A DNA stretch of 63,752 nucleotides, filler included, from Hausera hauseri (lineage: Eukaryota): assembly GCA_046269625.1 (NCBI GenBank). It is 10 parts of 10 records of this genome, joined end to end, with 100 filler letters (N's around TTAATTAATTAA, not from the genome) between each part and the next. Parts side by side here need not be neighbours in the genome. Positions count along the whole stretch, not along the records: positions 27,693 to 40,103 come from JBJURY010035556.1; 9 more parts are not named here. One strand, written 5' to 3'. Numbering within the stretch: the stretch's first letter is position 1; the number at the start of each line of letters is the position of its first letter. Made by a program: the position numbers and the translations under genes. Under the pieces are notes generated by a model. The model was not told the origin of the DNA. It saw only the letters and a list, made by a program, of their open reading frames with translations, and ran no database searches. This document shows positions 17,732-61,140 of this stretch, piece by piece.

Positions 17732-17732
17732 G

Positions 17733-23388: not shown

Positions 23389-23760
23389 NNNNNNNNNNNN
23401 NNNNNNNNNNNNNNNNNNNNNNNNNNNNNNNNTTAATTAATTAANNNNNNNNNNNNNNNNNNNNNNNNNNNNNNNNNNNNNNNNNNNNAGCATGAAATTT
23501 TGAATGAGGGAAATTGAAATTGTGCCGAAAGACTCAATTACGTAACTATTAATTGAGAATTTGGCATACTGTTTTAATCATAAAAACAACTGTTTGTTAC
23601 TTTTACGTGTACACATTGACGTATATTTGTTTAACAAAATATTTGTTAAACAAATTAATTTGGATTAAAATAGAGATTTATTCCCGAAGAAAATGGAATC
23701 ATACCTCAAAACTTTTATCAGTATAGTCGTCAGCAAACCGGCTTTCAGTCAGCAAATATA

Positions 23761-24365
23761 ATGTCCAACGATAAAAGTTATCTGTCAATGCAGCCAAGCA
23801 TGACAAATACGCTCTCGAGCGGAGGTAACAGTGTGATGAATTACAGCATGTACCATCAAAGGAATGTTGGCGATTCCGGCCTTTATCAACCAGGTAGCAT
23901 TGACATTTCGAACCAGTCCAAACATGGATTCAATTCGAGCTCTCGAGTCGGAACTATGCCGCATTATTTAGACAACAGTATATCGAGCCATTCATATCTC
24001 TCTCCAACGTCACACCGGACAATTACTGGTAGTAATCTGAACACAAGTGTCCAATCGTTGTTAAATGGCCAAAATGTTTCATCAAAGAGTCGAACTGGAA
24101 TTTATAATTTCGACAGTCCATCCAGCCTCATGGGTCAATGGGATGGGCCCATGGGAAATTTTGACAGTTCCGATTTTCCGTCACTTAAGTTTAAACCCAG
24201 TAGTCAAACCTCACAATTGTCATCCGGTAATTTCATTTACAGCATTTCCAACAAAAACAACCAAATCAATTATCATTAAATGTTTATGAAATCGGGACAT
24301 ACCACTGGGCATACATCGGAACACAACAGAATTTTCGATTCAACAAGATTTTCCAATTCTTCCAG
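23761..24365 (+). pseudogene. CNOT2: CNOT2/Not2-like N-terminal fragment
   Basis: S/N-rich region with FDSSDFPSL and, after a stop and frameshift, a F.IQQDFP motif like the CNOT2 DFPAL motifs; NOT box absent. Confidence 0.5.
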
Positions 24366-27592: not shown

Positions 27593-28409
27593 NNNNNNNN
27601 NNNNNNNNNNNNNNNNNNNNNNNNNNNNNNNNNNNNTTAATTAATTAANNNNNNNNNNNNNNNNNNNNNNNNNNNNNNNNNNNNNNNNNNNNAGAGATTT
27701 ATTTTGACTTAAAGCAGCCTGCGGATCCTGTTTGTTAGTTTATTTGACCTTATTGAGTTAAGAACACTAGGAGGTACACGAGCGTCGTTCCCAATATTTA
27801 ACGATTTTCAGACATCCAATGTATTACAGGGTCCGATTACCAAAGTGGGCCCTCCAATTTTTGAATTTAATTAAGCCTATAACGATACTTACGTTATTTG
27901 AAATAATCATAAAGTAAAATTGTGAAATATATAATTTAATGTAATAAGAAACAATATGTAAATCAATAAACAAGGTTATTATCGGAAATAAAACAATATA
28001 CAAGACTTACAGGAATCATACATATAGGAAGACTTCATATCCATAATGTTGTGTCTGCTTAATCAGTTCATAACTCTATATATACACAATTTCGTGAAGG
28101 CAGATTGTCTACAAAAATTAGCGTAGCATAATATTACCACATAACAAATTTCCACAACAATTGTCATATAATGAGATAAAATAATTTATATTTTTTATAT
28201 CACAAAGAAAATGTCTATAAGTCAAAAAGTCATATTTTATTATTAGTCAATTTTATCAACTGGGAAGTTTATTACTTTCCCTAGTCGGATTTTATTGTTC
28301 TTACATTAACAGCACACATTTATGTTTAATGATTGTCTCAGTCTTTAACGATTGTCTCAACAATATTAAAATCCTTCATCTTTTTCAGATATCTGTCTCT
28401 GATTATGAT

Positions 28410-28703
28410 TGTTGGCCGCGGGCGCAACCACACCGTCCACATCGTCGCCCAGCTTGAGTAGGGTTGTGGCATGTCCGCTAAATCAGAATTTGATCGTTTG
28501 TAATTATTCATTGCAAAGTAACACCAGTTGTTGAAAATTTTATTGTTTCTCAAAATACTCATTTGAAAACAAATCCGAAAATTCCAAAATTAAATTATAC
28601 TTTTAATATTACATTTTTAAATTAAATTCATGGTCGAATTTTTAAAATTTAAAAATGTTTCTAATTTAAAATTAGAATTTTAGTTCTCTATTATATCTTT
28701 ACA
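28410..28703 (-). repeat. 3' LTR (~294 bp, TG...CA) preceded by PPT
   Basis: PPT AAAAAAGGGGGA directly before TGT at 28703; ends CCAACA; homologous to 35637-35931. Confidence 0.85.
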
Positions 28704-29080
28704 TCCCCCTTTTTTAAGAATCTTAGTAGTTTCTCTACGTTTCTCTCCAAGGTTTGGCCATCTTGATGTCGTAGTACATATCGTCTGTCGTGTACTTTCT
28801 CAATGATCGTGTACGGGCCTTTGTATTTGTCTTTCTCCTTTGCTCCGGATTCCTTCCGCACCAGCACCTTATCCCCTACTTCAAACCTCCGTTTTACCGT
28901 GGGTTCTTCCTGACTCTCTGTGTTCCTCCCTTCTGTTCCTTCTTTTTGTCCATACCACTTTTCTCTATATATCTTTCTGCGAAATATTATCTCTGCTGGG
29001 CTCTTACCTGTCGTCTTCTGGACTGTCGCATTCAACGTAAATTCTATTTCTACTAGTATGTCCTCCCAGTCCACTCTCGA
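28691..29080 (-). mobile_element. Gypsy integrase C-terminal fragment
   Basis: EFTLNATVQKTTGKSPAEIIF, FEVGDKVLV, YKGPYTI (GPY module) running into PPT/LTR. Confidence 0.85.
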
Positions 29081-29235
29081 TTTACAGCACTGCAAACATT
29101 GTCATTTATTAGAAAAGCATGGGGAGATAATGCAGTTTCTCAGTCTTCTGTTTATCTGTTGTATTCTGTATTTAGAAGTGGTAACCGTGAGTCACTTGAA
29201 GCTGCGGAACAACTGATAATAACGTTAAACAGGTG
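29080..29235 (+). repeat. ~155-bp repeat, inverted copy at 34184-34364
   Basis: Both copies encode HLLEKHGEIMQFLSLLFICCILYLEVVTVSHLKL; differ by a ~24-bp indel. Confidence 0.85.
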
Positions 29236-30099
29236 ATTATTTGTAAACTAAGAACAGTTGATTCCTTTGTGTATTCTTTAGACTGACTATTGCTAATACG
29301 AAGTACATTTAGGAGCATTTTCTTCACTTTGTGGTAAATGAATATTTTATGAACAAATTATATTCAGCTACAAATTCGTTTTATTTTATTTAAATTTTTC
29401 TTTATTATATAATTTATTTTAAAATTAATATCGCTCAGAAAAATAATTTTAAACCATGAAGAACCATTTACAATTGAAATCAAAATTAGAAATAAAATTA
29501 AAAGTTTGATTTAAATTTAAATTAAATCTCACATCTTTTAGTCAAGAATCTTTACTTTTTTTATAGTTGTTTTAAAAGTATTTTTGGAGCCATTCTATCC
29601 TTTGAATGATCGTAGTTTCGTTATTTATTGTAAGAAATAACTGCGACCATCCCTTTCTTTAGTCATTTTCATGGGTCCTTCATAATGTTTTATTCTATCA
29701 TCGTTTTCAAATACATAAGGGATAATAAAAATGTAAATATTATTATTAATTTCGCACTGTAATATTCTTTTTGATACCTCTTCTGCAGTATTTTCTTATT
29801 TTACGGAGTCATAATCTATAAACAATATATTCCTAACATAGGATTTGAATTATAGTGTGATGACGATTATAACATTGATTATTACTTACAATTAAAATCT
29901 CTAAAATATTTTGTCTATCTACTTACCTTTTTCATAAATCTTTTATGGTATATCTAAATCTTATATTTTTGTTTCCTTTAATTATTGACGATTTCAATGA
30001 AAACCTTACCTAGCACAAATGCTATGTGCAATAAATCAAAACATGGAAAATAGAAAAAAGTTTTGTAAAACAGTATATTTAACAAAGTATTAAACAATT

Positions 30100-33000
30100 C
30101 TAAAACGTTTTCTGAGCATTCTTTACGGACTTTCTCTGTCTCTTTATCATATTAGTCTCTTCAATGTCGTTAACTGATGGCTCAACACATTTTCGTTTCC
30201 TGCTGTAATTTGGTATTCTTTTACAATTTTTTCCCAAGGCCATGAAAGAAAATTCATTGATTCTTTCCATTTGGTTGTTGAGAGTTGATACCCATCTTTT
30301 TCTCGATTTTTTCCCTGTATTTTTCTCATATTCATCGTCATCATATTTAACCTCCTTTATTTTCTTGCCTTTAATACATCCCAAAATTTCTCTTGCAACT
30401 GTTGCTTTGTCATCTATGTCTGAATCAAAATATATACCCATTGAACTAAAGTTTTGAAGAAACGTTTTTTGTCCTCTGCTTACTACGGATGACTTTCCAT
30501 ATGCACTAATCAACGCTCTATTAATTACTGGATAATATTCAGACTCGATAAGAGCACCAACAAGATGTGATGTATCTGTCAATTTAATTCGGACAACGTT
30601 CAGTTTCAGCAGAGAATTACAAGCAGTGTCAATGTGTTTCCAAGCAGTACACACAGATCCCGATACCACACAATACTGCTTCCTCCGTTTTCCATATCGA
30701 CAGCAACACGAACCGTTCCATAGAACATGCATGCACTTGTCCATACTCTCTATAAACGCATGCTTCCACATTAATTCAGCTCTATCGACATCTATTTGAA
30801 TCCACATTCTTTTGAATTCTTCAATCGCTAATTGTTTTGGCGGAAAGTTTGGCGTAATTAGCACTACGGAATTTGGGCTGTCTGAAACGACAAGAGCAAC
30901 TATTATTTTTGCTGAATTTGGAATACAAAATGTGCTGCATTGACCGGCTTCCGTATACATTTTTATGGCATTTTCCCAGTTTGTGCCTTCGTATATATTT
31001 TCCACTTTGTGTATGTATATACTTCCTGATGGATTGATGAATCGTTCTGTCGAAATAAGTCTGATTTGTCCGTTTTCACATCCAACATCTCTCGTTCCGT
31101 AGTCGTATTCATTCAACTCTTTTGCTTCTTTTATTTCCAATTCCATAAGGTGCATAAAGTATTGATAAATTGCATTCTGGACATTCAATTCGATACCAAG
31201 TAAACGATTCAGAAACTTATTAACGGATATTTCTTGGTCATCATCTAGCCCAACGCTTGTCAAACTCGTTCTTGCCAAATTCTGAAACATGATTTCGTCA
31301 AACATATCCAGACATACTTTAGGCACATCTAAAAATGCGTTTGTGCCAAATATGTTTTTCAGAAGCTTCTGTATGGCTCGCTCGGCATACTTGTTATCAA
31401 TATTAAATTTGGATAAATCAAGCATTTCAGATGACTTTCTATCACCTTGAGTAAATGCACCAAGAGTCTGTAATCGTTTTGCGATGGAAGCCACAAATCG
31501 TTTTTCTCCATCGAGATCAGATATAAGTAACACATAATGAGGAGCCACAACCTGGTTTGATCTATGTGTTCGACCGAACTGTTGAATGACTTTGTCGGCT
31601 GACCATGGTAATTCAAGAGTTATGTGAAGTCTTTGACTGTTGTTTTTAAATCGTCTGTCAGAGTGTAAGGATATACCAGTGCTAGCAACGTCCGAAATTA
31701 TGGAAACTATTTTTTCCCCCGAATTAAATAAATCCTTTTCGTATAAATTGACTTTTTCAATAGTAAATTCATTTTGTATTCGCGATTCGTAACGAATTTT
31801 TCCATCATCATTCATGATTACTCGACCTCTTCTTCCGGTTAATTCTGAAACGAAATCCGGACCACCAAACATTAAAATCAGTTCGTCCAAAATATTGTTT
31901 GGTAGTAATTTTCGCAGATCGTCTAAAGATTTTAGTAAATTTTGTTTTGTCTCATTATCTAAAAGACTTGATAAATTTTCTCTCATATCGTCATGTTCAT
32001 TTTCTTGAATAAATTCTTCCACTGTGTTGTATTCTAAATTTCTCTTTTCTGTGAGAAGATTTGTAAAAGTATCATAGGCAGCCGAGGGAAACTCGTTAAG
32101 AATTCCATTCTGTTCTTCTAATAATCGGTTCGTATTCGCCTCACCAGTCGATTGAATTCCAATAACCACAGACTTGTTGTTGATTAAGGCCGAATTACTG
32201 AGTTCAAAGCATTTGGTCAATTTTGCTGATAGACAAAGTTGTTTGAAAAATCGTTGATGAGCAGCCCAGAAAACTTTATGAAATGATTGGTGTTTTGTCT
32301 TCCTTGATAGCGAATCAGTCGTGAGAGCATTATACAATTTGGTCCACAGTGTTACACAGAGGTCATAAATTGTTCTGAAATTGTATCCTTTTATTTGTAC
32401 GCTAGATGTTTCTACAACCTGAACTTCGCAGCTAACGTCCTTGAAACTTATTTGTCTGGACATGTACAGACCTTTCGATTTCATTTCCATAGCTATCAAT
32501 TCCAACGCACTAACATCATGCTTTAAAAGGAATTCTTCAAAATATTTGAATTCTGTAAAACAACTGCCTTGTCCCCACAAGCCCAGACGCAACATATATG
32601 CCATATGCTTAGGTTCTGTAGCTCCAGTTGCACTCACGTATACGATGCGACTATTTGGTAGAAACTGTTGGATATCAATGACAGCTTTGGCTGTTTTTGT
32701 TGTTCCAATCACATTTTTTGCTTTGTGGCATTCGTCAAAAATAATCAAGCCATCGAAATCTTTACCGCACCATTCTAAAATTTGATTTAATCGGCTTCTT
32801 TGAAGTCCTAATTTTTCTTGACAAATCACACAATTATAGCTTACAAACAGAACTCCATTTTGTTTATTAATAGGGTCATATGACATTTCACTCAAAGAGT
32901 AGATATCGACATTTAATCCAATGTCCTTTAAATCTCTTTCGGCGTCTTCTTTCAGCACATTTGAAACAGATATCCAAATGGCTTTCTTCCGATTTGCAAT

Positions 33001-33531
33001 AATATTCTCATATATAATTCCTGCTATTGTTCTACCTTTTCCAACTCCCGTACCATCTCCAAGAAAGAATCCTGCTCGACATTTATCTGGTAAACGTTCT
33101 TCATGTTTCTGACAAGCATAAATGATGGCTTCCACTTGAGCGTTTGAAAGTCGACCGTCACTTATAATGCTTGATGGAATTTGTAGCAGATATGTCTGTT
33201 CAGGTGGCCTAACAATAGATAATGAATATGACTCAACTAATGAAGTAGTGTGAGGCAAACCTTCATTTTTTATCGATGATTTATATTCCTGAAATGTACT
33301 GTTGTTTGACAATTCTAGATCTTTAAAAATATGTTCCCAATTCTGCTTTCCATACAACCAGCGAAGGTATGCATTCGTCTGCATTGACGACGAATTTATC
33401 ACAGGTATTTGTGTAGTCTGTAAATTATTTACAGAAACAACAGACGACGTATGAGCGTAACCACATTGAGATTCGTAACTCTTTGGATTCATAATGATTG
33501 ATTTTAAATAGGATTTGTTACCATATGACAT
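30100..33531 (-). CDS. SBNO: Strawberry notch family SF2 helicase-like protein, intact and intronless (1143 aa)
   Basis: LSNAQVEAIIYACQKHE, GFFLGDGTGVGKGRTIAG, IIFDECHKAKN, YVSATGA, FWAAHQRFF, SELTGR, GISLHSD, LELPWSADK, QQFGRTHRSNQ, FLNRLLG. Confidence 0.93.
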   Translation of the reverse strand: MSYGNKSYLKSIIMNPKSYESQCGYAHTSSVVSVNNLQTTQIPVINSSSMQTNAYLRWLYGKQNWEHIFKDLELSNNSTFQEYKSSIKNEGLPHTTSLVESYSLSIVRPPEQTYLLQIPSSIISDGRLSNAQVEAIIYACQKHEERLPDKCRAGFFLGDGTGVGKGRTIAGIIYENIIANRKKAIWISVSNVLKEDAERDLKDIGLNVDIYSLSEMSYDPINKQNGVLFVSYNCVICQEKLGLQRSRLNQILEWCGKDFDGLIIFDECHKAKNVIGTTKTAKAVIDIQQFLPNSRIVYVSATGATEPKHMAYMLRLGLWGQGSCFTEFKYFEEFLLKHDVSALELIAMEMKSKGLYMSRQISFKDVSCEVQVVETSSVQIKGYNFRTIYDLCVTLWTKLYNALTTDSLSRKTKHQSFHKVFWAAHQRFFKQLCLSAKLTKCFELSNSALINNKSVVIGIQSTGEANTNRLLEEQNGILNEFPSAAYDTFTNLLTEKRNLEYNTVEEFIQENEHDDMRENLSSLLDNETKQNLLKSLDDLRKLLPNNILDELILMFGGPDFVSELTGRRGRVIMNDDGKIRYESRIQNEFTIEKVNLYEKDLFNSGEKIVSIISDVASTGISLHSDRRFKNNSQRLHITLELPWSADKVIQQFGRTHRSNQVVAPHYVLLISDLDGEKRFVASIAKRLQTLGAFTQGDRKSSEMLDLSKFNIDNKYAERAIQKLLKNIFGTNAFLDVPKVCLDMFDEIMFQNLARTSLTSVGLDDDQEISVNKFLNRLLGIELNVQNAIYQYFMHLMELEIKEAKELNEYDYGTRDVGCENGQIRLISTERFINPSGSIYIHKVENIYEGTNWENAIKMYTEAGQCSTFCIPNSAKIIVALVVSDSPNSVVLITPNFPPKQLAIEEFKRMWIQIDVDRAELMWKHAFIESMDKCMHVLWNGSCCCRYGKRRKQYCVVSGSVCTAWKHIDTACNSLLKLNVVRIKLTDTSHLVGALIESEYYPVINRALISAYGKSSVVSRGQKTFLQNFSSMGIYFDSDIDDKATVAREILGCIKGKKIKEVKYDDDEYEKNTGKKSRKRWVSTLNNQMERINEFSFMALGKNCKRIPNYSRKRKCVEPSVNDIEETNMIKRQRKSVKNAQKTF

Positions 33532-33733
33532 TTTAATTTTTCGAAATTATCATTTAACTTAACTGTATTGGCTGCTTTGATCATAATTCCAAAAGTGTAA
33601 TATTTATATCATATTTGTTAAAATTATATAAACGATATTGGTTGAAATTAATCGACATAGTTCCGTTTTCAAAAAAGTTAATTAGTGTATTCTTACTGTG
33701 GTACATTTTTAAAGTAAAATATTTATCCGATCA

Positions 33734-33876
33734 ATTCCTGAAATGTACTGTTGTTTGACAATTCTAGATCTTTACAAATGTGTTCCCAATTCTGCTTTCC
33801 ATACAACCAGCGAAGGTAGGCATTCGTTTGCATTGACGATGAATTTATCACAGGTATATGCGTAGTCTGTAAATTA
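33734..33876 (-). repeat. 143-bp direct duplicate of SBNO 5' coding sequence (33285-33427)
   Basis: Near-identical sequence with a handful of substitutions. Confidence 0.9.
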
Positions 33877-34183
33877 AAGGTATTGATTGAAAGTTGTGTT
33901 TAAAAATCAATTTTAGTTTACATGTAAAGTTGGAAAATGTAGCTGATACTTTTACAATGAAGTCCAATATTGGAATGAATTTTTATTATACAAAAGTGGT
34001 ATACAGTAGCTCAAAGCCATCTCGTACGATTTTAAATTGTACTGAAAATTTACGATAATTCTGTAAATTTTGAAATAAATGAATTTAGATTTTAACGGTT
34101 AATAATATGTTATTTATTATTAGAATTAATCTGCACGATTTCTTTAATTGTCAAATGCATATTTTCCTTTAATAACGCTGCAA

Positions 34184-34364
34184 CACCTATTCAACGTTAT
34201 TATCTGTTGTGGTTCAGGAAGGGCATCCACTTCGTTCTGCAGCTTCAAGTGACTCACGGTTACCACTTCCAAATACAGAATACAACAGATAAACAGTAGA
34301 CTGAGAAACTGCATTATCTCCCCATGCTTTTCTAATAAATGACAACGTTTGCAGCGCCGTAAAT
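34184..34364 (-). repeat. Inverted copy of 29080-29235
   Basis: Direct reverse-complement alignment. Confidence 0.85.
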
Positions 34365-34689
34365 TCATTCCGCCGACACATGTCTACTAACATCCTAACA
34401 TACTAACATTAATTTCCATTTCTGACAATTACAAAAATAAGAAAAGTTTAGCGCCTTACAATTTCGTTAATAATGTAGTTATGGTTCTAAAACTTAGAAT
34501 GCAAAGATCATGTATTACGTAGTATCATGTGTTACAATTTCATAACAATCAAATCTTTTTTGGCAAAATGCCAATATTTTCTTATTACTTTTGTATCTAC
34601 TAAACAACATACTCAAATAAAATTTATTTACTTTATCATAATAATTATTTTGATTCAACCTCATTAATAAAAGTTTTCCTTTAAAACAA

Positions 34690-35636
34690 GATCATTTTTG
34701 GAAATATGTCTAAAAGGTTATGCCAATGAACATAAATGCGGAGAACAACTGCAAAGAAATAGGAAGACTATTAAATGTAAAAATTGTAATAAAAAATTTC
34801 TCAAAATTTACCAAAAAATCATAAATGTAACCATAAAACTTGTTCCTTATTTTTTGAACTATATCCAATTGAAAAAACTATTAATATTATATATAATCAA
34901 TTAAATCATTTAAATATTTTAAGAAATACATACTTTTTGATTTTGAGGCATCAGTGAATGAACAATATCATCATATGAACTAGTGTGTTTTGTACGATTC
35001 ATGTCAAAATACTTTATACACCATTACGGATAAATCATTTACAGTTCTTGATAAAGATTCTAAAATAGAAATTCAAATAAACGATCCCATGAAGAAAAAT
35101 AAAGATATAAATATTAGATTCATCGACTCAATAAATTTTACATTAATTCCATTAAAATCATTTCATAAAGGCATTTGTATTTGAAGGTCAAAAAGGCGAT
35201 TTCCCACAGTATTTTAATAAAAAATTGGAATTGTTGAACCATATTCCTCACTCGAAGATAGTGGTTATTACGAAAAATTAGACAATTATGCAGAAAAACA
35301 AGAATTATTTGATTGGTATCAAACAGTAAAAGATCAAACATTTAATTTTCAAAATGAAATATTTAAATATTGCTTAGATGTTATGATATAAAAAAGGGAT
35401 ATATGATTTATAGAGATTTATTCTTAAAACTCAATATATAGATATTTTCCAATGCATTTTAATAGCATAACCATGTACAGAAATTTTCTTATCAATGTTG
35501 AAAGGCCATGTTAGTTCGTGATAGTCCAAAAAATTCGAAAATATTCATTTTTGAAATCTATCCGTTGATTAAGAAACCTCGATCCAAAAGGCAAAATGTA
35601 ACATGCCATGAGAGGAGGCGAAAGAACAATTATCAT
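34690..35636 (+). pseudogene. Decayed Maverick pPolB fragment of a second subtype, interrupted by an LTR
   Basis: FFDFEA, IRFIDSINF, KGDFP, KYCLDV, HAMRGGE motifs across broken frames. Confidence 0.65.
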
Positions 35637-36030
35637 TGTGAGGGTATAATCGAGAACTGAAATTCTAAATTTAAATTAGAAACATTTTTAAATTTTATAA
35701 ATTCGACTTTGAATTTAATTTAAAAATGTAATACTAAAGTTAATTTAATTTTGTAATTTTCGGAAAACTTGTTTGCAAATGAGTATTTTGAGAAACAATA
35801 AAATTTTCAACAACTGGTGTTACTTTGCTATGAGTAATTACAAACGATCAAATTCTGATTTAGCGGACATACCACAACCCTACAAAAGCTAGGCGACAAT
35901 GTGGACGGCGTGGATGCGCCCGCAGCCAACATGGCGACTTACGCCACAATGGACATTTTAGCAAAACAATTGTTGCCCAACAAATTCAGGAAAGGCGGCG
36001 AGGTGTAGAAGTTCATTAAAGGATGTCGGT
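35637..36030 (+). mobile_element. 5' LTR (35637-35931), PBS (TGGCGAC) and gag start stub
   Basis: TG...CA LTR homologous to 28410-28703, immediately followed by TGGCG and a short ATG-started remnant (MDILAKQLLPNKF). Confidence 0.78.
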
Positions 36031-36159
36031 TTTGTTTAAATTTAAAATCAGTGGTTCCAGATTATCCATTTTTGTTGTATGTTTTCTTATGTTAGTACAA
36101 TATTTACAAATTGTACATTCACTCCAAGTGTATTTATTAATTGATTTAATTATAATTCG

Positions 36160-36355
36160 ACCTGTTTCACAAAATTTATAATCTGAATTATTTGAAGCCA
36201 CTTTTGTTGTATATTTTTAAAATGTTGTGAGTAATTGTATTACCAAGGTTATGGGTCGGTTTTTCAAATTTTCTGAAAAAATTTTTATGAGTGAACAGTG
36301 GTGGGTAGCGAACGAATGAAAATATTTTTTTAAAAATTTGAGAGGCCGGCCCATA
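36160..36355 (+). repeat. Dispersed repeat shared with 48815-49020
   Basis: CCTGTTTCACAAAATT...TCTGAATTATTTG...TATGGGT.GGTTTTTC...AAAATTTGAG...GGCCC in both places. Confidence 0.7.
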
Positions 36356-36373
36356 ACTCTGGTAATACAACTA

Positions 36374-38961
36374 CTTAGAAACATCTGTTTAGATTATTAT
36401 GAAATATTTCCGTGTTACATATATTCTGCACCAGGATTAACATGACAAGCAGGAATGAAATTCACTGGTATGAACCTTGGTGAAGCTTGACACGGCTTAA
36501 AATATTACAAAGAAGAAATATACGATAAACTTGTATTTTTTGAAGAAGGAATAAGAGAAGGGGTTACAAGTGTGTTAGGAAATAGAAATATCAAATGTAG
36601 TAATTCATATACACAAGAGAAAGTTAACACCTATATGAAGTTGAATAATTATGAATTAGATGTTGTTATGAATGATTTGCACGACCAACATGAAAAAAGA
36701 AGAGTAACCCAAATTTTAAAATAGATTTGAGGAAGTACCCAGAACCAAATTATTAAATGTATTATTACGCAAATTCTTTGTATGCATCTGCAATGACATT
36801 AGAATTACCAACAGGTGAAATGGAATGGAGGGATGATTTAAATTACGTGCGAAGTTTGAAACGTAGTGATGGATATGTGTATGAAGTAGATATAAAATAT
36901 TCATATTCCATCAAAGAACAAACAAAATATTATCTATTTTGTCCAGAGAAGATTGAACCAAAAGAAGAATTGTTTAGTGCTTGTCAGAAACGCATAACAC
37001 CGCACAATTACAAAGCAGAAGAGAAACTAATTTTAACCCAATTTGATAAGAAATGCATAAAAGAAGGTAGAATGTTAAATTGGCACCTAGATCATGATAT
37101 TATTTTAGAAAAAGTTTATCGAAAATTAGTTTATGAAAAATCAAATTGGTTAAAACAATATATAGAATTCAACATTGAAAAACGAACTGAAGTAAAGAAG
37201 AATGGTGATGACTTTGGTGATAATTTCTTTAAACTATTAAATAATTCATTTTATGGAAAAACATTAGAAAATATTAGAAATAGACAAAATAATGAAATTG
37301 TGAGTAATAAAGAGAGATTTAGAAAATTATCAGGTAAACCAATTTTTAAACATTGTAAAATATTTGATGAGGAAGTTGTAGCAATTTACATGTTGAGAAA
37401 TTCAATATATATGGATAAATTTAATCATATCAGTTTTTCCATACTAGAATTAAGTAAATTAATGATGTACAGATTTATTTATGATGGCTTATATAGTATT
37501 TATACAACTGATAAATGTAAAATAGATTTTACTGGTAGTGTAACAGAGGACACGCCAATTATTTTAAAAAAGAATGGAAAAATAAGAATTAAAAAAATCT
37601 CTGAAATTTCAAACAAATGGAATTTATTGCTTGAAAAAGAATATCAAGAACCTAAACATTTAGAAATTTGGACAAGAAATGGTTGAAAGAAACTCATGAA
37701 AGTAATTAGACATAAAAGAAGTAAGAAAATATATAGGGTAAGAACAAAATTAGGATTTGTTGATGTAACAGAAGATCATTCATTATTAAATAAAAATAAC
37801 CAAGAACTAAAACCAGATCAATTAATAGTGAATGAAGCTAAATTATTACATAATAAAATATTCCTTAATGATAACAAAATTACATTGAAACAAATATTCG
37901 AAGATATTTATGAAAATGATGCCACTTTTATAGAAGACAAATGGGCATCTCTTTGAGGGATTTTTGGTGATAATTCTTCAGGAATCTATCGCTATCAAAG
38001 TGGAACAAAACACTGTTGTACATTTAATAACCAAAATTTATTCCTATTACATAAAATAAAGAAATATGTTAAAGAAATATTTAATAACGATTGTAAAATT
38101 TATGATACAATGAAAAGTTCTAATGTTTATAAATTAAATATTATTAAACCAAAATTTTTTACAGAATATTTTTCAAAAAATTATTACAATAAATTTCAAA
38201 AAACTAAACGTGTACCAGAATTTATTTTGAACGCAGATAATAATATTAGATATTGGTTTTTTGTAGGATTTTACGCTGCAGATGGAAATAAGCGTTTTAA
38301 TGAAAGGAATAAGACTATTGGATTTACCCAAAAAGGAAAAGAATGTTTTAGTGGATTGTATTATTTAGCAACATCAATAGGAATAAATATTGTTGTATCT
38401 GAAAGATGGGATAAACCCAATTGCTTTAGTGCTGCACAATGTAAGAAGGATATCACAACAGAAGTAAGAACAGTACGATTCCTAAGACAAAGAGAAGAAT
38501 ATGTTTACGATATAGAGACTGAGGATGGATCATTTAACTGTGGATTTCCATTGATTGTAAAAAATACTGATAGCTGTTTTGTTGAAATAAAGGATAAATT
38601 AGATAATATTAAGGAAAACTTAAAAGAATGGATAGTTCCAAATGTTTTAGGCAAAATTAAAGATGAATTAGAAGACGATTACATTACAGAAGCAGTGTTT
38701 TTAAAAGCAAAATGTTATGACTATGAAACAGTAAAAGACAAAAAAGTTCAAAGATGTAAGGGAATTAATAAATATAATAAACTAACAATTGAAGAATATA
38801 AAAATGTCTTATTTAATAATGAAACAATTTATAAAAGAAATTATGGATTAACGTCTGATCACCATAATATTCAATTATATAAACAAAAGAAAATTGCACT
38901 TGATCCATTTGATGATAAAAGATTTTTCATGAATTCTGTAAATAGTATTCCATTTGGATAA
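36374..38961 (+). pseudogene. Maverick/adintovirus-type pPolB C-terminal half, intein-containing
   Basis: YSAPGLT*QAG, FFEEGIREG, YANSLYASAM, KLLNNSFYGKTLENIRNR, SILELSK, split motif C (FTG|intein|TDSCF), GKIKDE, FLKAKCY, ALDPFDDKRF; 36757-38961 is one frame with two TGA stops. Confidence 0.9.
37537..38565 (+). mobile_element. Intein (~343 aa) with LAGLIDADG homing endonuclease at the Pol-c site
   Basis: Block A SVTEDTPIIL; block B VDVTEDHSLL (TxxH); endonuclease motifs L*GIFGD and FFVGFYAADG; block F YVYDIETEDGSF; ends IVKN followed by +1 Thr of TDS. Confidence 0.9.
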
Positions 38962-40228
38962 AAGTGATTTTTTAAAAAGATTGATAAATTAAATCAAAGT
39001 GATTTTTTTGTTTAGCGGAGCATATTTTTATCCATTTATAAAAACAAAAAATTTTGTAACAAAACTTTTTGGATTTATACCTTATTAATAATTTATCTTT
39101 TACCTCAACTAAAAATTTCATTTCTTTTCTAATAACATTCTTAGTTTTTCTATTATTTCGTCTTTCACTAAAAAAGTCTCATTATTATTCTTATTTTCTT
39201 TGTTTGTTCCTTTCTTATTTAAAGAAGTTTTACTTAAAGCTTCCAGACCAATTTTACACTTAATAACAATGAGCAAAATGTAAGAACTTCATCTTATGGC
39301 AGGCTCCACAGACATTTCATCAGCAAGGTACACTATAGGTTTGCATGCTTTCAGAGTCATAAAGCAACTTGTTACAGCTTTGAACGCTATTTTATGTTTA
39401 GCTTTTTGCTAGTTTAGCTTTTTGCATTTTAGTTCTGTTTTAGCTTCAACTCAGTATCAGCATCTTTGACAAATTTCATCGAGCTCATTCAGCTCTCAGC
39501 GATCAAACCACATTAAATATTGTTCCTGTTGTTCAGTGATTTCATCCGTTTTTCTGTAACTTAAATAAAAAGTCGGTCAAACCAGCCACAGCTGAATGTA
39601 AAGGATCTGCGATCTGAAGGTGTGAAAGCCCCAAACAGTTTTTGGGAACACGCAGTGAGTGAAGTCCTGGACCAGTAAAACTTTCAAAGCTGAGCAGCAA
39701 AGAGAAGCAGGTGGATTTCAGCTGGTACTCCCATCAGCACCACGGCTGCTGGAACAGGTGATAAACTGGTTTTCACACCGTGTTCTCACTGATATCACTG
39801 CTGACCATTAGCATGGGGGTGGGGGTGGAGGGAGAGAGAGAAGAGATAATAGGAGGCACAACTTAAACGATCGAGAGTCAGGCGGTTTTTATTTGTGAAA
39901 ATATGGTGTCGACATCATAGAATGTCTTGTGTCGAGAAATGTGAGATAGGTCCAAGGCGCCCCACTAACATTTGACACCAGCGTATTTGGTCTGTCAGTG
40001 AGGAATATCTTGCACGTGACGCTTACATTCGAACTGCGGTAATTGTTTGCGTCCTTTTAAAATGGTTTTATAGGAGCAAATATCAACATCGTCCTGATGA
40101 TTANNNNNNNNNNNNNNNNNNNNNNNNNNNNNNNNNNNNNNNNNNNNTTAATTAATTAANNNNNNNNNNNNNNNNNNNNNNNNNNNNNNNNNNNNNNNNN
40201 NNNACTTTTCGCACGCATCGCGTGACCA

Positions 40229-41050: not shown

Positions 41051-42316
41051 CTAGACGGCACTTTCGAATGAGCCCATTGCGTCAGTAGAGATGCCGGTAG
41101 TTTGTCGTAATTGCTCCATTCGTCCGCGTAAGTCCGCTTCCGAATCTACTTCATTTGAGGGTGATCGCGAGTCAATATAATAGGACGTACTGGCTTGTTC
41201 AGGAAATATTTCTACAATTTTATTTTCTCCGTTCGAATAATATCTTAGCCTAGTGGCTTCGGCTCTACACACTGGGCAGGTCGTCTTCCCATTCTTCAGG
41301 GTCCACGTTTCTAAACAGTATCGGCAGTACTTATGACTGCAGTCTTTGTTATCTAGGACTACGAATCCTTGGTATAGATCTGCATCACAAACAGGGCATT
41401 CTTCTTTTTCAGCCGCATCAATATCCACTAGGTTTTCATCCACTTCTATTCTTTCGAACACCAGTCCCTTTTTATCTTGATATAAATATCCATATAGTCT
41501 CTTTTGTTTGGGGTCTATCGAACTTTTTCTGGGGTCGTCAGATACTGCTACTAGGGTCCATTCGACTATTTCTTGTTTGTCCAGATCGGGAATTCCTGTC
41601 TTCTTGTATTGTCTTTTTAACTGAATTCTAACTTGAGTATCCACAGGAATTGTTAGTCGGTTAGTGCCACTTTTTGATTGAAATATGGGGGCTAGGTATC
41701 TGCCAATGGTGTGGTCCTCTTTAGCATAACCATTTCCGCTTACTATTCTTCTGGGAACAGTTGACACGTAAAATACGGCTTCCTTGATTTTCCCTTTACT
41801 GTAATATTCGGCCATAACGAGAATTCTTTTATACTCCTTTACTTCCCCGAATTCCGTAACCACAATCGGAATATCTTCGTCCCAGTTCTTCCTGAGAACA
41901 TTGACTTCTGATCTAATGACTTTGGATTTCGCGATTTCCAACGATTTTTCATTTTCCCTTTTCTTTTCTCGATTCGATAATGCTCCTTGATTGTCTTTGG
42001 ATTCTTCCGAATTTGAGTTGTCTAGAGCGGTTCTTTTACTAGTCTTGCTTCGCTTTTTGTGGATATAATCTAGGAAAGAGATTTTTATCTTGTGCTTCTT
42101 GGGAATTTCCATGTCGTCTGCTCTGGATCTCGGTTCTTCTCGGACCTTACTGGTTGATGGCTCCAACGAACTACTCAAGTTTCCCTTTTGATTATTCGGT
42201 ATTGTTATTCTAATTTTGTTTGTCCCTTGATTTTCTATTTTCGGATAACCAGGGTATTCACTAAATCCTTTTCGGAACTTCTGTATCAGAGATTTTGGGT
42301 TATTTTCAGACATCAT
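41051..42316 (-). CDS. C3HC4 RING-finger protein (putative E3 ligase), element accessory ORF
   Basis: CPVC-x15-CSHKYCRYC-x12-CPVCR; intact 421-aa ORF. Confidence 0.85.
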   Translation of the reverse strand: MMSENNPKSLIQKFRKGFSEYPGYPKIENQGTNKIRITIPNNQKGNLSSSLEPSTSKVREEPRSRADDMEIPKKHKIKISFLDYIHKKRSKTSKRTALDNSNSEESKDNQGALSNREKKRENEKSLEIAKSKVIRSEVNVLRKNWDEDIPIVVTEFGEVKEYKRILVMAEYYSKGKIKEAVFYVSTVPRRIVSGNGYAKEDHTIGRYLAPIFQSKSGTNRLTIPVDTQVRIQLKRQYKKTGIPDLDKQEIVEWTLVAVSDDPRKSSIDPKQKRLYGYLYQDKKGLVFERIEVDENLVDIDAAEKEECPVCDADLYQGFVVLDNKDCSHKYCRYCLETWTLKNGKTTCPVCRAEATRLRYYSNGENKIVEIFPEQASTSYYIDSRSPSNEVDSEADLRGRMEQLRQTTGISTDAMGSFESAV

Positions 42317-42331
42317 GTTCTGTATGGGATC

Positions 42332-43495
42332 TCATCGTAAATGGTCGTACACATTCTTGACACATTTTGTTCGTTGACTCGCGGTCATTAATTTCGGAAA
42401 TTTAAATCCTTCGCCGTTTATGGCTTCAAGCATCATTTTGAATTGTGATTCCTGTGATGCTGTTGTTGGAAGTAGGCATCCTCGCCTTCGCATTAGGGTG
42501 TTCTCCACTTGACTCACAATGGCTGGGTTCCGGCTTATTTCTCGTATGCCTGCTATGTATTCTGGTCTAATTTTTAATCGTTCTAACTCTTCATGTACCC
42601 GGAATCCAGTAATGATATATCCATACAAACAATGACTGATATTCTCTTGAATCTCCAGGAAATCTTTTTCCTTCTTGAGCTGTGGTTTTGTGATTCCAGT
42701 GACATCGGGAAAGGTATCTTTTATTCTAACTCTCGGCGCGATTATTCTGTTTAAAACTTCTTCTCCGTTTGTGTTTCTAATCGATATTTCGATCGGAAAA
42801 TACCATCCATCATCCTTTTCTCCGTAGTTTACTGCTAAAATTCGGGTATTCCGACCGTCTGGGACCAATCGGTATGATTCCCCACTTTGTTCAATTTCAT
42901 CTTCTGAAGGTTTTTGTATATAAATCAGTGGGGGTAATGGTTTCATCAATTTGGTTCTCCACGTCATTTCGATCATAATTTTGGTGGGAATGTCCGCAAT
43001 TCTAAATTCTAGGGCATAATCCATAAGACTAAAACAGCATAGTTCGTATGTGCTAAACTTCCACTGTTGCCCTTTTTGTGTACTCCAGGATTGTCCTACG
43101 ATCCTGTATTGAATTTCTCCATCAGCGACATGTATATACATTTGCTGATGCGTTGGTTCATAAGGAATTAGGTCTCTCAAATGGTACACTCGTACATCCT
43201 TAGGACTTCTCATGGCATATAGCCGAACCAATCTGTTCTCTTCTAGCCCCCATTTTAACCCATTAGGTATTTCACTTTCTCGGGTAAATTCCCGATAGTT
43301 GGTATTCTTCAGATTTTCTCCAATTTGTCGATACAGACTCTTTGATAAGGGTTTCAGGACCGTAACGTGCTGCTGTAGGAAACTGTCGATGTCGAAGCTG
43401 GTTGAGGAAATCTTCGCCTTCTCGGTCATACTTACTTTGCTGAAATAAAAATAGAGGTTAAGCCTAAGACAGATCATCGTTTTGAAACAAAACAT
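42332..43495 (-). CDS. Protein with C-terminal DEDDh exonuclease-like (ISG20/REX4-like) domain, catalytic residues apparently degenerate
   Basis: EISIRNTNGEEVLNRIIAPRVRIKD...VTGITKPQLKKEKDFLEIQENI...IITGF resembles the REX4/ISG20 core; likely start MTEK at 43429. Confidence 0.6.
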   Translation of the reverse strand: MFCFKTMICLRLNLYFYFSKVSMTEKAKISSTSFDIDSFLQQHVTVLKPLSKSLYRQIGENLKNTNYREFTRESEIPNGLKWGLEENRLVRLYAMRSPKDVRVYHLRDLIPYEPTHQQMYIHVADGEIQYRIVGQSWSTQKGQQWKFSTYELCCFSLMDYALEFRIADIPTKIMIEMTWRTKLMKPLPPLIYIQKPSEDEIEQSGESYRLVPDGRNTRILAVNYGEKDDGWYFPIEISIRNTNGEEVLNRIIAPRVRIKDTFPDVTGITKPQLKKEKDFLEIQENISHCLYGYIITGFRVHEELERLKIRPEYIAGIREISRNPAIVSQVENTLMRRRGCLLPTTASQESQFKMMLEAINGEGFKFPKLMTASQRTKCVKNVYDHLR

Positions 43496-43534
43496 TTTAT
43501 CTGTCTGATGATAGGATAACCCGATCAGTAATTG

Positions 43535-45037
43535 TCAGGTTATGGTATCATAAGGTTCGTCTTGGTACCCTTTTACCCAATAAACTCCCTTTCGATTTTT
43601 AACGCGTTTTTTATAATTTTTGGAGACTAGAAAAATCACCGCTATTATTACGATAAGAACGGAAATTGACACACTACATATAGTTATTATTGGTAGATTG
43701 TTCGGTTCGGTAGAACTTTGTGTCGTGAATACGTCTAGAGTACTGATATCATGATACGACATTGCTTCAATTTTATTACCGAGCGTTCGTACCGTAAACG
43801 TTTTAGGGTTTTTACCCTCTGCGGTCATTCTGATTATATACTCATGTTGCGGTCGTAACGACTTACACGCCGTTCCTAAACTATTCTTTTTCAAAATCAC
43901 AACTTGGTTAGTATGCAAGGTACGACACTCAATTTTGACGTCTTTATTTAATGTTTCTTCAGCATAGAATAGGATTCTATCATTTTTCACTAATATTTTG
44001 ACTGATATGCTTCCTGGCATTTCGCTCGCAGTAATAATCGTAATACTGCGAGTTGTGCTCGGCGTCGTGGATGGTTTTCCCGTAGTGGTCGGAAGTGGGA
44101 GTTCCCATATTCCATTTTTGGGACGATATCCTTTTAGGAAAATACTCCGTTCACCTGGATAGGTGTCGTACAAATCAAATTGTATTTGGTATTTTTGTCC
44201 TAATCGGACTACGCAGCATACAGTGGGACGTCTGTTGCCCAGTGAACAATATGCTGGTCTAGGAATAGAGGATTCTAACGGCGTAAGCTGGACGGAGATT
44301 TCCTTGTCCTCCGGTATGCCAAATTGGGTCTTGATCCTAATACATTGGTTCTTTAAGTCCTTGTGTATTCCGACAATGTTGTCATCCAAGATTCTATTAA
44401 TCGGGTTGGTGCTTCGAATTATTTCATTTGTTTTAGCTTCATTGGCGTCCCTTTGTTGTGGCATTCGTATCGTGAGCTCCGAAGCTATGTCGGCTTGAGC
44501 TCCAAATTTATAGGAATAGAACAGCTGAAAGCTATATCTATAGACTTTTCCGAAATCTAAATTACAGCATCTCCTGTAACGTCCATATGGAAAATCACAT
44601 ACTCTTGTATCGTCTCCGGCAGTTACAAATGTTATTTGAAATCCTATGTGGCTCGGAATCGGTTCGTCTGTTTCGAACCATGCACATGGTTTACTCCAGT
44701 CCATATCGCGTACTCTGAGTGTCCGTAAATTTCGAATATCCTTTTGTTTTTCAGCTTTGGCGCTCGATTTCACCGTGGGCATATACGAAGCAATTAACGA
44801 TAAGGCTAGGATTATCTGTACATAAGATATCGGTCTATTCACTATCGATGACGTCTTCTTTTCTTTAATTGTTTTACCGGAACGTAGATTGTAGCGTTTG
44901 TCTGGTCTTATCTCGGTTTTGACCACCCTTTGAATTGATGTGACTTCTTCTTTACCATTTTTGTTTATGTAAACTGTAGTCGGCGTAGTTTTCGTAACTT
45001 CGTAAGGTCCTCTACCTGTCCTGGTAAGCTTAAGAGA
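43535..45037 (-). CDS. Gypsy integrase C-terminus fused in-frame to an env-like type-I membrane protein (5'-truncated by contig end)
   Basis: Frame open from 45037: RGPYEV (GPY), RYNLRS, then hydrophobic ISYVQIILALSLIASY, Cys-containing ectodomain, T/S-rich stalk, TM IITICSVSISVLIVIIAVIFLV, basic stop-transfer and Tyr-containing tail. Confidence 0.75.
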   Translation of the reverse strand, partial: SLKLTRTGRGPYEVTKTTPTTVYINKNGKEEVTSIQRVVKTEIRPDKRYNLRSGKTIKEKKTSSIVNRPISYVQIILALSLIASYMPTVKSSAKAEKQKDIRNLRTLRVRDMDWSKPCAWFETDEPIPSHIGFQITFVTAGDDTRVCDFPYGRYRRCCNLDFGKVYRYSFQLFYSYKFGAQADIASELTIRMPQQRDANEAKTNEIIRSTNPINRILDDNIVGIHKDLKNQCIRIKTQFGIPEDKEISVQLTPLESSIPRPAYCSLGNRRPTVCCVVRLGQKYQIQFDLYDTYPGERSIFLKGYRPKNGIWELPLPTTTGKPSTTPSTTRSITIITASEMPGSISVKILVKNDRILFYAEETLNKDVKIECRTLHTNQVVILKKNSLGTACKSLRPQHEYIIRMTAEGKNPKTFTVRTLGNKIEAMSYHDISTLDVFTTQSSTEPNNLPIITICSVSISVLIVIIAVIFLVSKNYKKRVKNRKGVYWVKGYQDEPYDTIT

Positions 45038-45476
45038 NNNNNNNNNNNNNNNNNNNNNNNNNNNNNNNNNNNNNNNNNNNNTTAATTAATTAANNNNNNN
45101 NNNNNNNNNNNNNNNNNNNNNNNNNNNNNNNNNNNNNATCGGGTGCTGAGACTAGCCAAACCGTTTCCTGGCCTTTCATTTTCGGTTCCATCATATGGGT
45201 GTATGGACTGATCAAAAATACCGTCAGCGACATGGCCTAACCCGATATTCCGTATGGAATTATGTTTGACAATCAATAATTCCAAATAGCGAATGACAGA
45301 GGAAAGAACCTAATCGGAAACCGGAGGACGGAAACATAAAATTAAGTGTCAAATATAAATCGCTGAGATGAAGATTTAATATCAGGGATGAGGAAAGTAT
45401 TAGTAGATTATAGGGGAAAAATCTGAAATATATAGGTAAATTGGCCGTAAAGGACAACCGCAACGGAGGACTATGT

Positions 45477-48144
45477 TTAAAAGGGTGATGTTGCGTCAAC
45501 AGCAGAAATGTTGTGGATAAAAGCAGGGGAAAAACAAGGAATAGAAATCGTTAATAAAAGGCATATTAAAAAATGTTTGCCAGACGAATAGTACACAGTG
45601 ATAAATCTCACCTCATTGTGTACCAGTATCCGTTCAATGCTGTCCTTGGGATCTGTGAAACCATTCTTGTCCAACGATGGTATTCGAAAGAACTGTCGAA
45701 ACTTCGATAAAACATCTTCACAATTTCGAATGGGAAATACTTCGAATCCGTAGGCAATGCAAAGTTTTAAAAACCTTAATATATGTGAATTGGCCCGCGG
45801 TGATTTGCTGGACATTTCGACTGTAGCATAATGAATGTAATATAATGCAGCGATCAGTCCCAACTTTGTCGGCGGTACATCATTGGCATTTTCTTCATTG
45901 TTATAAGCCATATTTTCGTAATTTTCTAAATATGAAAGAAGCTTCGGTGTCACGATATTCCAAATATGAGGCAAATTCTTGTAGAGAATATAAACAAGCA
46001 CTTCAATGGTCTTGATTATACTCAACCATCTGTAGTTGGTTGATAAAGGAACTCCAGCAGGAACCAATAATCTAGCGATAAGAAATTGCGGCTGAGGAAT
46101 GTTGAATTGAGTGTTGTAGTCTATAATGTAATATATATATCATAGTATACATCGTTAGATTCTGGTACGTTATCATCAGCACTGTTGCTTCCATCAATAT
46201 CACTGGTTATAACTTTTGAAAATAAAGTATATACAGGGTTGCAAATGACATCAAACCATTGGTATGTGGCTAAATCCAATTGGGAGTTTTCCCTGTTTAT
46301 TAATTGAGTGTAGTTATCGAAACGGGTAGAATTCGGTTCAATGGATGGGGAAGGATTCCATGCTGTAATTAAAATACATTTTAGAATACTGGACGCAGTA
46401 TTAATTCGATCAGTCTTTTCCTTACTTTGCCGCTCGGTTCTATCAACTTTCAACTGTTGTGCAACAGTTTCAATTATATCCTTTAACGGTACGGTAAATG
46501 GATCCTCACAAAAGTCGTAGAATCTTATTCGAAACGTAGGATCTTTGGAATTGTTCGTGAATTGAAACTCAACATGATGCGACTCAAACAGATCATATCG
46601 ATTATACTTTTCCATCTTTCTTAAGACTTTAAGTGCGGTGCGATTTACTTGATACATATTTTGGATACATATTTTGATATAAATAATCCGAAACATGTTG
46701 TTAATGCATAAATCTAACGTTCTTAAACGCTGGGTTATTATGTTGCATGATAAAACATAAACGAGCGGTTCCATCAATAGCAATAAATGAGGTAGTAATG
46801 TACTAAGTCTCACGGGGGTGATAATACAAAGTTCACTGAGTAAATCCCGTACTTGATTGGTATGCAGTGATCTTGACAAAGCGCTCAAACTATTCAACAT
46901 ATGGTGCAGCAAAGGCAAAAACTGCCTATATAGTCTTTCGTGAGCTCCACCACCAAATGAATGAAATAAATAGCGTAAAAGGCAAATGAAAATACTGGGA
47001 TCTTTTGCGTAAAGAGAATATTTTATACAGTCCAGTATAATACGTCTAAGATGCATCTCTAAAATATTTTCGAAGCAAGCCAAATTTCTATGAATGGAAT
47101 TGAAAATTAACTTCAGCAACTGAATATGTAAGTTGGCCTCGGGTGTACCTTCCCCGATAATCTCTATGTTATCAAGTACGATAATATTAGATTGGCGAGT
47201 ATAGCCGAATTTGTTCCCTGTTCTTCTTGAGAACTGCTCAAAATAATTTGGGATAACTCTAATCCAATATTTCTGTAGAAATACTGGTTGTAGTGATAAT
47301 TTCTCCACTGCGCTGACTGATTCTGTATTGATTTCTATAAAATTGCTGTGAATGTCATCCTTCATCTTTTCACACTTAAAAGAAGAGTGATGACCAAGTC
47401 GACATCCATGAAATGCTGCATTCAATTTCTTGAAAAATATCAACAGAGCTTTTTGCAGCAATTTCCCGGAATCAAGAGGTGTTGCAACTGCATAAGCGAT
47501 TTCCTTTGGTCTGTACAAAAGTTCGAGATAGTATATATCCCACTCACGAATTGCATATGGTGAAACAGTTAGACATTCCTTTTCTTTGTCAGGATAGCCA
47601 TCAGACAAACACAATGGGTTGCCTTCAAATGAAAAGTGACTAAGACTATTTGACCTTTTTGTCGAATTGATGTAAATGAGTTGTTCATAAATCTGTTGCT
47701 AATTGACAACTGCGAAAACATTGAAGATACGTGATTATTGTGATTAGAATTGGATAAAGTGGATGGTCGCCGATATGTGAAAATCCCGGTAATGGATTGG
47801 AAGCACTACACACATCGTTTGTTGAAGGCTTTCCAGTGAACACCATAAACTGGAAGGGGTTGTGGTTTGCACGACTAGACATTACCTCTGCCCGCAAGAC
47901 GATGAAATGACTTCCATGTCAATGGCCCATCTATCTTTTAACTGGACTCCAATATTCTAGTGTTGCTGACAGCTTCTTGAAGTAATGGTTGTAGCGTCAT
48001 TAATAATCTAATTTGATCGTTATGATTTTGTGGAATCGGAACGTCTTTTTTAGAATTAAAAATTGTACTGACTAATTGCCTATCACGTTCGTTCGTTAAC
48101 CGGTTAATTCTTGAATCTGAAAACTGAACTATGTTCGAGAGCAT
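45477..48144 (-). pseudogene. TRRAP: TRRAP/Tra1 internal fragment, intronless and disrupted
   Basis: LLKLIFNSI, LLRYLFHSFGGGAHERLYRQFLPLL, ELCIITPVRLSTLLPHLLLLMEPLV match the TRRAP HEAT region; broken into several ORFs. Confidence 0.8.
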
Positions 48145-55070: not shown

Positions 55071-55349
55071 AACGCGTTCGGTGGTGTCAGATCAAATCAG
55101 ATACAGGCAATTCAATCTAGTCTGGATATTGAGACAATTATTTTTTGTACATTGTTTTATTTCAATATTCATAATGTACTTTGTTTAGTGTCTTTTGTGT
55201 TTTGTTTTCGTTTACTTACTTAACCTATTATTATTAAGTAAGATAGAATAAAAGTAAAACAATAACCTTGTATGAGAAAACAAAATATGTAACACGAATA
55301 CATTTATTTATTGATCGTAGAAAAACTAATATCACAAAAATACACAAAG

Positions 55350-55734: not shown

Positions 55735-55845
55735 TACTTATGTATAAAATTACACAAATAAAACAACTAACTATTATTATTATTATCATCATTGAACATA
55801 GGTGGTTTTGTCCATATCACTAAAGCAAAATTCTTTGCGTTCATT

Positions 55846-61094: not shown

Positions 61095-61140
61095 CGTTGT
61101 CAATAATAAACGAACTGCAATCATCATTGATATCATTGTG

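Follow-up and report, generated by a model that had tools for sequence, protein, structure and literature searches.

A decayed Pol-c intein in motif C of a Polinton-type DNA polymerase, probably in an animal genome

Pol-c inteins, Polintons and eukaryotic nuclear genomes

Pol-c inteins interrupt family-B DNA polymerases between the Asp and the Thr of motif C. The Pol-c inteins of Mimivirus, other giant viruses and archaea, as described in the available text of PMC549080, share with the intein analyzed here the xxD/TDS site, Ser1, a terminal Asn and a Thr at position +1. Two LAGLIDADG motifs and a length of about 340–350 aa are further common features, as far as the partial sources go. The xxD/TDS junction is read at the loci of our intein's relatives and likewise at archaeal and viral loci. 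Among the matches listed, the closest viral members are 40–43% identical to our intein. In contrast to the giant-virus and archaeal cases, the extein here is not an RNA-primed family-B polymerase (PolB) but a protein-primed one, from an apparently multi-copy integrated element, and the inteins concerned form a clade of their own.

The second group of described counterparts is that of the Polintons (Mavericks; adintoviruses). In the portions of PMC8502044 and PMC10748475 at hand, Polinton polymerases match PF03175, as does ours, and relatives carry an endonuclease VII/HNH insert. The HNH and VSR inserts described there differ from an intein in having no splicing domain, and the word "intein" is absent from the main texts of both papers. 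Krupovic et al. 2024 (PMC11161782; PMC11071308), in the excerpts at hand, speculate that the Polinton HNH/VSR inserts stem from intein invasions.

Inteins have reached eukaryotic nuclear genomes inside viral-type polymerases before, namely in the endogenised viral polymerases of Klebsormidium, Tetrabaena and a labyrinthulid (PMC10710043, partial text). Those hosts are not animals, and the polymerases are called viral-like in the text available, where Polintons go unmentioned; the cases are thus set apart from ours by description only. A search of two of that paper's supplement files gave no match. Viruses of animals also include intein carriers, i.e., the invertebrate iridoviruses (PMC549080, PMC5784728). 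In contrast to the present case, these are free large viruses, with a glutamine-type intein according to the available part of PMC549080, and not integrated multi-copy elements.

The literature searched, which takes in few subscription journals, gave no intein in a Polinton polymerase, and the original prediction likewise knew of no description. The parts available of PMC12220804, PMC3671162, PMC13768754, PMC5718144 and PMC10991399 hold nothing on inteins in Polinton polymerases. Going by sequence, we regard the case as real and as one that recurs; the intein allele is a known one, and what is new is the kind of host. We think it probable that the locus holds a dead Pol-c intein in motif C of a Polinton polymerase, in a genome that is likely animal, that intact copies are able to splice, as predicted, and likely home, and that a giant virus was the likely origin.

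According to Green et al. 2018 (PMC5784728, partial text), inteins are absent from metazoan genomes, which serves there as an argument for antimicrobials that act by inhibiting inteins. A Polinton-borne intein would qualify the rule, though it resides in an endogenous virus-like element and not in a host gene. It would also be a molecular trace of contact between a Polinton and a giant virus in the same cell; such contact is relevant to a possible dependence of Polintons on large DNA viruses. Families with full and empty alleles would allow homing, co-conversion and resistance to be tested as they occur naturally in a multi-copy element of eukaryotes, and Polinton polymerase trees and annotations would need these inserts removed.

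The intein and its polymerase in the window

The window, i.e., the whole 63,752-nucleotide stretch of Hausera hauseri DNA analyzed, consists of small contigs strung together with N-padded spacers. The contig with the intein is gap-free and extends from 27693 to 40103 (Table 1). The frame 36757–38961 codes for the C-terminal portion of a DNA polymerase and is split by an in-frame insert of 1029 nt, which starts with SVTEDTP directly after KIDFTG and ends with GFPLIVKN directly before TDSCF. Retranslation gave the same limits as the original prediction.

Table 1. Features of the intein-bearing contig (window positions)
Feature	Position	Strand	Remarks
Intact intron-free strawberry-notch gene, host marker	30100..33546	-	Same gap-free contig as the intein
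Frameshifted remnant of the other polymerase class	34610..35500	+	P0003 type, the class holding the sister intein
146-bp high-copy element with imperfect terminal inverted repeats	36230..36375	.	Adjoins the truncation point of the polymerase
Broken upstream remnant of the intein-bearing polymerase	36376..36756	+	Stops, frame change
N-extein, motif A/B region, protein-primed family-B polymerase, divergent class	36757..37536	+	First motif-C aspartate missing
Pol-c-allele intein, dead copy	37537..38565	+	343 codons; stops at codons 50 and 140
N-terminal Hint (splicing) region	37537..37860, end approximate	+	Ser1, block B TEDH; contains first stop
Two-motif LAGLIDADG endonuclease domain	37930..38439, limits approximate	+	First motif damaged, with second stop; second, GFYAADG, intact
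C-terminal Hint region	38461..38565, start approximate	+	Block F YVYDI, terminal Lys-Asn
C-extein, opens with +1 Thr (TDS), runs to stop codon	38566..38961	+	

The insert scores 40.2 bits against TIGR01445, the intein N-terminus model, for which the cut-off is 24.5; the resemblance is thus not due to chance. It matches PI-PkoII with an E value of 3e-7. Its Pfam matches, to Intein_splicing (E 1e-7), LAGLIDADG_3 (E 0.002) and Hom_end (E 0.002), each lie under the gathering score, and intact relatives lie above such scores, e.g., P0006 with 37.7 for Intein_splicing against 35.8. An AlphaFold model built from an 83-row alignment (pLDDT 94.7) has a predicted Hint fold with an inserted two-motif LAGLIDADG domain. 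The closest solved structures in the PDB are TliVMA (TM 0.68), PI-PkoII, PI-PfuI and PI-SceI, and the closest viral folds, themselves predicted, are those of PolB inteins from a phycodnavirus, Pandoravirus, Marseillevirus, Megavirus and HaV01. S1, H81, D325 and N343 are invariant across all 83 rows of the alignment. Profile and fold matches of both Hint and LAGLIDADG kinds were thus found, and, judged from these matches and the predicted model, the insert is confirmed as a genuine homing-endonuclease intein.

The intein has Ser1, a TxxH in block B, block F and a terminal Asn, and the C-extein has the +1 Thr. The TIGR01445 match and the alignment agree with the original assignment of blocks A, B (TEDH) and F. 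Of the two LAGLIDADG-like motifs claimed, the second stands as described, but the first is one residue short and interrupted by the second stop. The penultimate residue is indeed Lys and not His, but this is unremarkable: Lys is the commonest state, found in 86 of the 126 viral members of the allele that were parsed (the parse covered the junctions of 148 out of 221 proteins with an intein, counting near-copies). The penultimate Lys was therefore rejected as a novelty.

The copy had been called dead from two TGA codons, and both are present, at intein codons 50 (37684–37686) and 140 (37954–37956). The damage goes further: the gene is truncated 5′ at 36375, with its first ~700 codons missing, there are breaks upstream of 36757, the first LAGLIDADG motif is damaged and the first motif-C aspartate is gone. 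Reading through the whole polymerase frame is blocked by the stops. Contigs of public run X1 (records 3 and 6) contain both stops with 0 differences from the window; the stops are thus real and not assembly errors. The first stop codon is absent in most other X1 intein contigs (11 contigs; summed depth 276/292), and the single intein-bearing contig of run X2 likewise differs from the window copy at that codon, so that the first stop is private or rare.

Compared with X2 contigs over 37501–38507, the window copy differs at 52 of ~543 bases in its 5′ part (~10%) and at 1 of 399 in its 3′ part. The window copy appears to be mosaic, by recombination or as an assembly chimera.

The N-extein passes the PF03175 threshold (36.5 bits > 25.8), and the exteins nearest to it are intein-free protein-primed polymerases, 40–52% identical, rather than RNA-primed viral PolB. 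Relatives of this polymerase class carry an endonuclease VII/HNH insert. The split of motif C, together with the xxD/TDS reading in relatives, bears out the claim of an insertion at the Pol-c site of a protein-primed polymerase. Two other protein-primed polymerase copies of the window have no insert, as had been pointed out, but they are distant dead families on other contigs (~24–36% identity with the test proteins in the polymerase core) and not alleles.

The window copy is an isolated remnant of 2.6 kb. No integrase, packaging ATPase, capsid genes, terminal inverted repeats or target-site duplication were found around it, and the only rve integrase (Pfam) of the window is on another contig. 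We infer that the parent family belongs to the Polintons/Mavericks from the polymerase and from the apparent high copy number. Relatives occur on many contigs of up to 1 Mb, and in runs X1 and X2 the summed depth of the extein is well above that of the host gene, depth being no copy number. In the 146-bp element at the truncation point, 26 of the first 30 bases pair between strands (by eye), and no target-site duplication was seen by eye. Its ends, AGTAGT/AGTAAT, are presumably of Polinton type. The P0003-type remnant, ~1 kb upstream of the intein-bearing remnant on the same contig, gave no Pfam match in the single frame tried; its presence indicates that both polymerase classes have met in this genome.

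Two degraded related Polintons, with repeats at 72–88%, are found at 53717–63752 and 12062–18287. The former has the rve integrase, TBP-like and dUTPase matches on the minus strand, and what we take to be ATPase, capsid and protease motifs.

Relatives, trees and the insertion site

Related inteins lying in, or nearest to those of, protein-primed polymerases were found in 18 database clusters and at one metagenome locus. Among the best 120 of 850 longer matches, five are in protein-primed polymerases, and four of these are in the top six: P0003 (56% identical to the window intein), P0004, P0006, P0008 and P0015. The other listed matches are in RNA-primed PolB. Thirteen of 40 shorter matches fall in the protein-primed group, 10 by extein match and 3 by nearest intein, and two of these 13 clusters probably belong to families already counted. 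Locus L142, one of 152 loci, is a protein-primed polymerase with an intein; the metagenome scan gave one protein-primed locus of 49. Several relatives are intact and multi-copy (136 members make up the P0006 cluster, with contigs reaching 1 Mb, and 121 the P0008 cluster), and the intact ones keep the splicing residues and both endonuclease motifs.

Other searches gave no further case. IMG/VR scans (80 kept of 489; and 23) returned RNA-primed PolB only, the best 150 of a 50%-representative search included no intein-bearing protein-primed polymerase, and a prokaryote scan found no closer intein, with a best full-length match of 37%. A PDB sequence search with an empty polymerase returned no useful match.

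Precise empty alleles occur within 90% clusters, among the members listed: six for P0006, one for P0008 and two for P0015. In the window's own family, contigs of runs X1 and X3 join in frame across the intein, and the empty sites, translated by hand, read HFTD/TDS, HASD/TDSV and HFTD/TDGN. Runs X1 and X2 contain both the strawberry-notch gene (0–1 differences per listed piece) and intein-bearing contigs; runs X3 and X4 (word shares 0.09 and 0.06) gave no coverage of the intein. In X1, the summed depth is ~300–900 for the intein and 12,000–18,000 for the C-extein, and in X1 and X2 alike the ratio is a few per cent, which is not a copy number. On the sequence evidence, the window intein is one dead member of a wider Polinton-borne intein lineage with intact and empty alleles.

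The searches also returned the P0438 cluster (55 members; P0475, P0476, P0478), the ORFs of which, 362–365 aa long and on contigs of up to 825 kb, consist almost solely of this intein. Each has its own Met ~11 residues before the intein and a stop a few residues after it. These ORFs may represent a multi-copy intein/endonuclease gene that stands on its own. For one empty relative, the cluster look-up gave fragments of Polinton-type polymerases that bear the label Bartonella (P0417, P0420–P0422); they lie on contigs of ~1 kb and are probably host contamination of those assemblies.

Separate intein and extein trees, as the original prediction had proposed, are discordant. The trees were built under LG+G4 without a mixture model, and the rows of the intein trees are Pol-c inteins throughout. 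In the unrooted 42-row intein tree, five of the six protein-primed inteins form one clade (100/100), within which the window intein is sister to that of P0003 (100/99); the P0015 intein falls elsewhere. When rooted on 10 archaeal Pol-c inteins, the five-intein clade (100/99) is nested among the viral PolB inteins, next to a viral sister clade with giant-virus MAG loci among its members (100/95). Deep branches in the viral part of the tree are weakly supported. A quick tree adds eight sequences to the five-intein clade and one to P0015. A single clade of all six inteins passes the AU test (p 0.08) but is found in 0 of 200 bootstrap trees. P0015 probably represents a second independent entry into Polinton polymerases.

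The P0003 polymerase belongs to a class other than the window's. By Pfam score only, the assignment fits an Alpha-like class for P0003 (strong PF03175) and a Beta-like class for the window as described by Starrett. The AU test rejects a tree that groups the four same-class inteins together (p 0.0002). The inteins of the two classes are 56% identical, and the exteins have no BLAST match to each other's reference. In a quick extein tree of 61 N-exteins (the rows with enough cover out of 74, near-copies dropped), the six intein-bearing rows are scattered and require six changes, which indicates that the intein moves between families. The scatter of the host polymerases and the sister intein in the other class together point to lateral spread by homing.

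Next to be considered is the DNA at the insertion site, as compared with viral sites. Of 18 positions, the window matches at a mean of 9.1 and L142 at 12.5, versus 14.0 for viral–viral comparisons. The target DNA is thus only moderately virus-like, so that a first jump needed a relaxed or rare event, probably a rare one. Ogata et al. 2005 (PMC549080, partial text) likewise doubted that an intein homes directly from one gene to a distant one. Subsequent jumps, from Polinton to Polinton, would be easier than the first. Of the claim that the intein entered the Polinton polymerase from a large DNA virus, the giant-virus affinity is seen in trees and folds, but the immediate donor is more likely another Polinton than a giant virus.

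Full and empty copies of P0006 differ at 7–8 of 20 flanking residues compared with 1.2–5.1% of residues elsewhere (6/6 pairs), and those of P0015 at 3 of 20 with no difference elsewhere (2/2 pairs), although pairs of one cluster are not independent. The single P0008 pair shows 0 of 20. The +3 residue is Ser in 50 of 51 background empties and Ala in all four P0006-cluster empties parsed (of six), and the P0006 and P0015 empties have motif-C residues that are absent at those positions among the 51. The site-local differences fit escape from cutting or co-conversion. The notion that a non-canonical motif C means resistance was kept only in part, as inteins also occupy the non-canonical sites ASD/ and /TDA (P0441, P0450).

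Mechanism, host and alternatives

The proposed explanation is as follows. By class-1 intein splicing chemistry, Ser1, the Thr and His of block B, block F, the terminal Asn and the +1 Thr would excise the intein and rejoin Asp-Thr-Asp, as the conserved residues suggest. Motif C would be restored only by splicing, so that the polymerase would work only after splicing. The freed two-motif LAGLIDADG endonuclease is predicted to cleave motif C in other Polinton copies where this site is empty; the intein, with some flank, would then be copied into the cut element by repair. A multi-copy element would offer such empty targets; a single-copy animal gene could not. The trees suggest one entry from the PolB of an NCLDV (nucleocytoplasmic large DNA virus) into Polinton polymerases, during co-infection, and probably a second independent viral entry, with subsequent movement between Polinton families and both polymerase classes. 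Polinton-like viruses are reportedly associated with entomopoxviruses (PMC11296320), which makes contact between Polintons and large viruses plausible in animals.

A broader proposal, which we advance tentatively and at somewhat less than even weight, is that animal genomes may carry true active homing inteins. These would be a Polinton-specific Pol-c lineage, captured at least twice from giant viruses, that homes between integrated germline copies, crosses polymerase classes, selects for cut-resistant motif C and, in one genome, now exists as a multi-copy intein gene of its own.

The strongest rival, which we consider unlikely though worth weighing, makes the intein a passenger: viruses from outside the host would have delivered it to each Polinton family, where it multiplied by transposition of the element only, without homing. 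The intein-bearing P0006 copies are one young subfamily, 98–99% identical, for which spread by transposition fits as well as homing. In X1 and X2, contigs with the intein make up only a small share, and empty alleles persist in each family examined. On the other hand, five inteins of different families make up a Polinton-only clade on a long stem, the sister pair of which spans two classes, so Polinton-to-Polinton transfer happened somewhere. The site-local differences, which fit co-conversion or escape from cutting, also speak against a passenger, as does one cluster in which no more than 2 of 742 extein residues distinguish full from empty copies.

The homing reading applies to animals to the extent that the contig is animal, and the strawberry-notch gene is its host marker. 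The search with this gene gave at least 6887 matches; of the best 120, 113 are named, and 112 of these are animal-labelled and one plant-labelled, at 38–49% identity. The Atlas ranking places a Chordata-dominated cluster first (0.99), an NCLDV cluster second (0.98) and plant FORGETTER1 21st. On other contigs, an importin-5 piece scores 204 bits to human versus 104 to yeast, and a TRRAP piece 137 bits to human versus 115 or less, both thus scoring higher to human than to yeast or fungal proteins. Run X1 contains the strawberry-notch gene with 0 differences over 3315 bases and at even depth, and X2 a nearly identical one; no public contig spanning strawberry-notch and the polymerase was found. 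On these sequence comparisons, we hold an animal host to be probable. The earlier description of an animal-like genome stands as regards the best matches of the gene, but its branch is very long (5.6 in a quick 19-row tree that has no protist rows and cannot place the host).

The same intein and element could instead belong to a co-assembled protist or other non-animal eukaryote, and the case would then be one more among the intein-bearing viral insertions known from algae and protists. The intron-free state and extreme branch length of strawberry-notch agree with such a host, as do the second-ranked NCLDV cluster and the four different organism labels of the public runs in which the stretch occurs. 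No RNA run is listed with the stretch, which has no bearing on expression. Nuclear scaffolds of algae and of a labyrinthulid are, moreover, published as carrying inteins in viral-like polymerases (PMC10710043, partial text). Against it stand the animal labels, the Chordata-dominated first rank and the human-leaning importin-5 and TRRAP pieces, and we judge a non-animal host to be decidedly improbable.

The window has long open host-gene pieces at 19142–21504, 23674–24279 and 45477–47698 (importin-5, a presumably CNOT2-like piece, MROH/Sec63-like, TRRAP). The minus strand of 41051–45085 contains the end of an LTR element and, after it, three ORFs: one for a membrane protein, one of 400 aa that belongs to no family and one with a RING finger. 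At 199–5786 there are Gypsy-type gag and pol frames that look intact, the latter of 1524 aa.

Returning to the viral origin favored above, the reverse view, that the lineage is old in protein-primed polymerases and vertical with many losses, or that Polintons donated it to giant viruses, draws on the modest support of the deep viral branches and on the weak homologues of Beta-class polymerases in some giant viruses (PMC8502044, partial text), but it is very improbable given the six changes needed by the six intein-bearing exteins, the nesting of Polinton inteins inside viral ones in the rooted tree, and cross-class inteins so similar in exteins so dissimilar.

A minor observation concerns loci L153–L158. 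These are viral-type inteins on contigs binned into bacterial or archaeal MAGs, and they group with giant-virus inteins; the contigs are possibly mis-binned viral ones.
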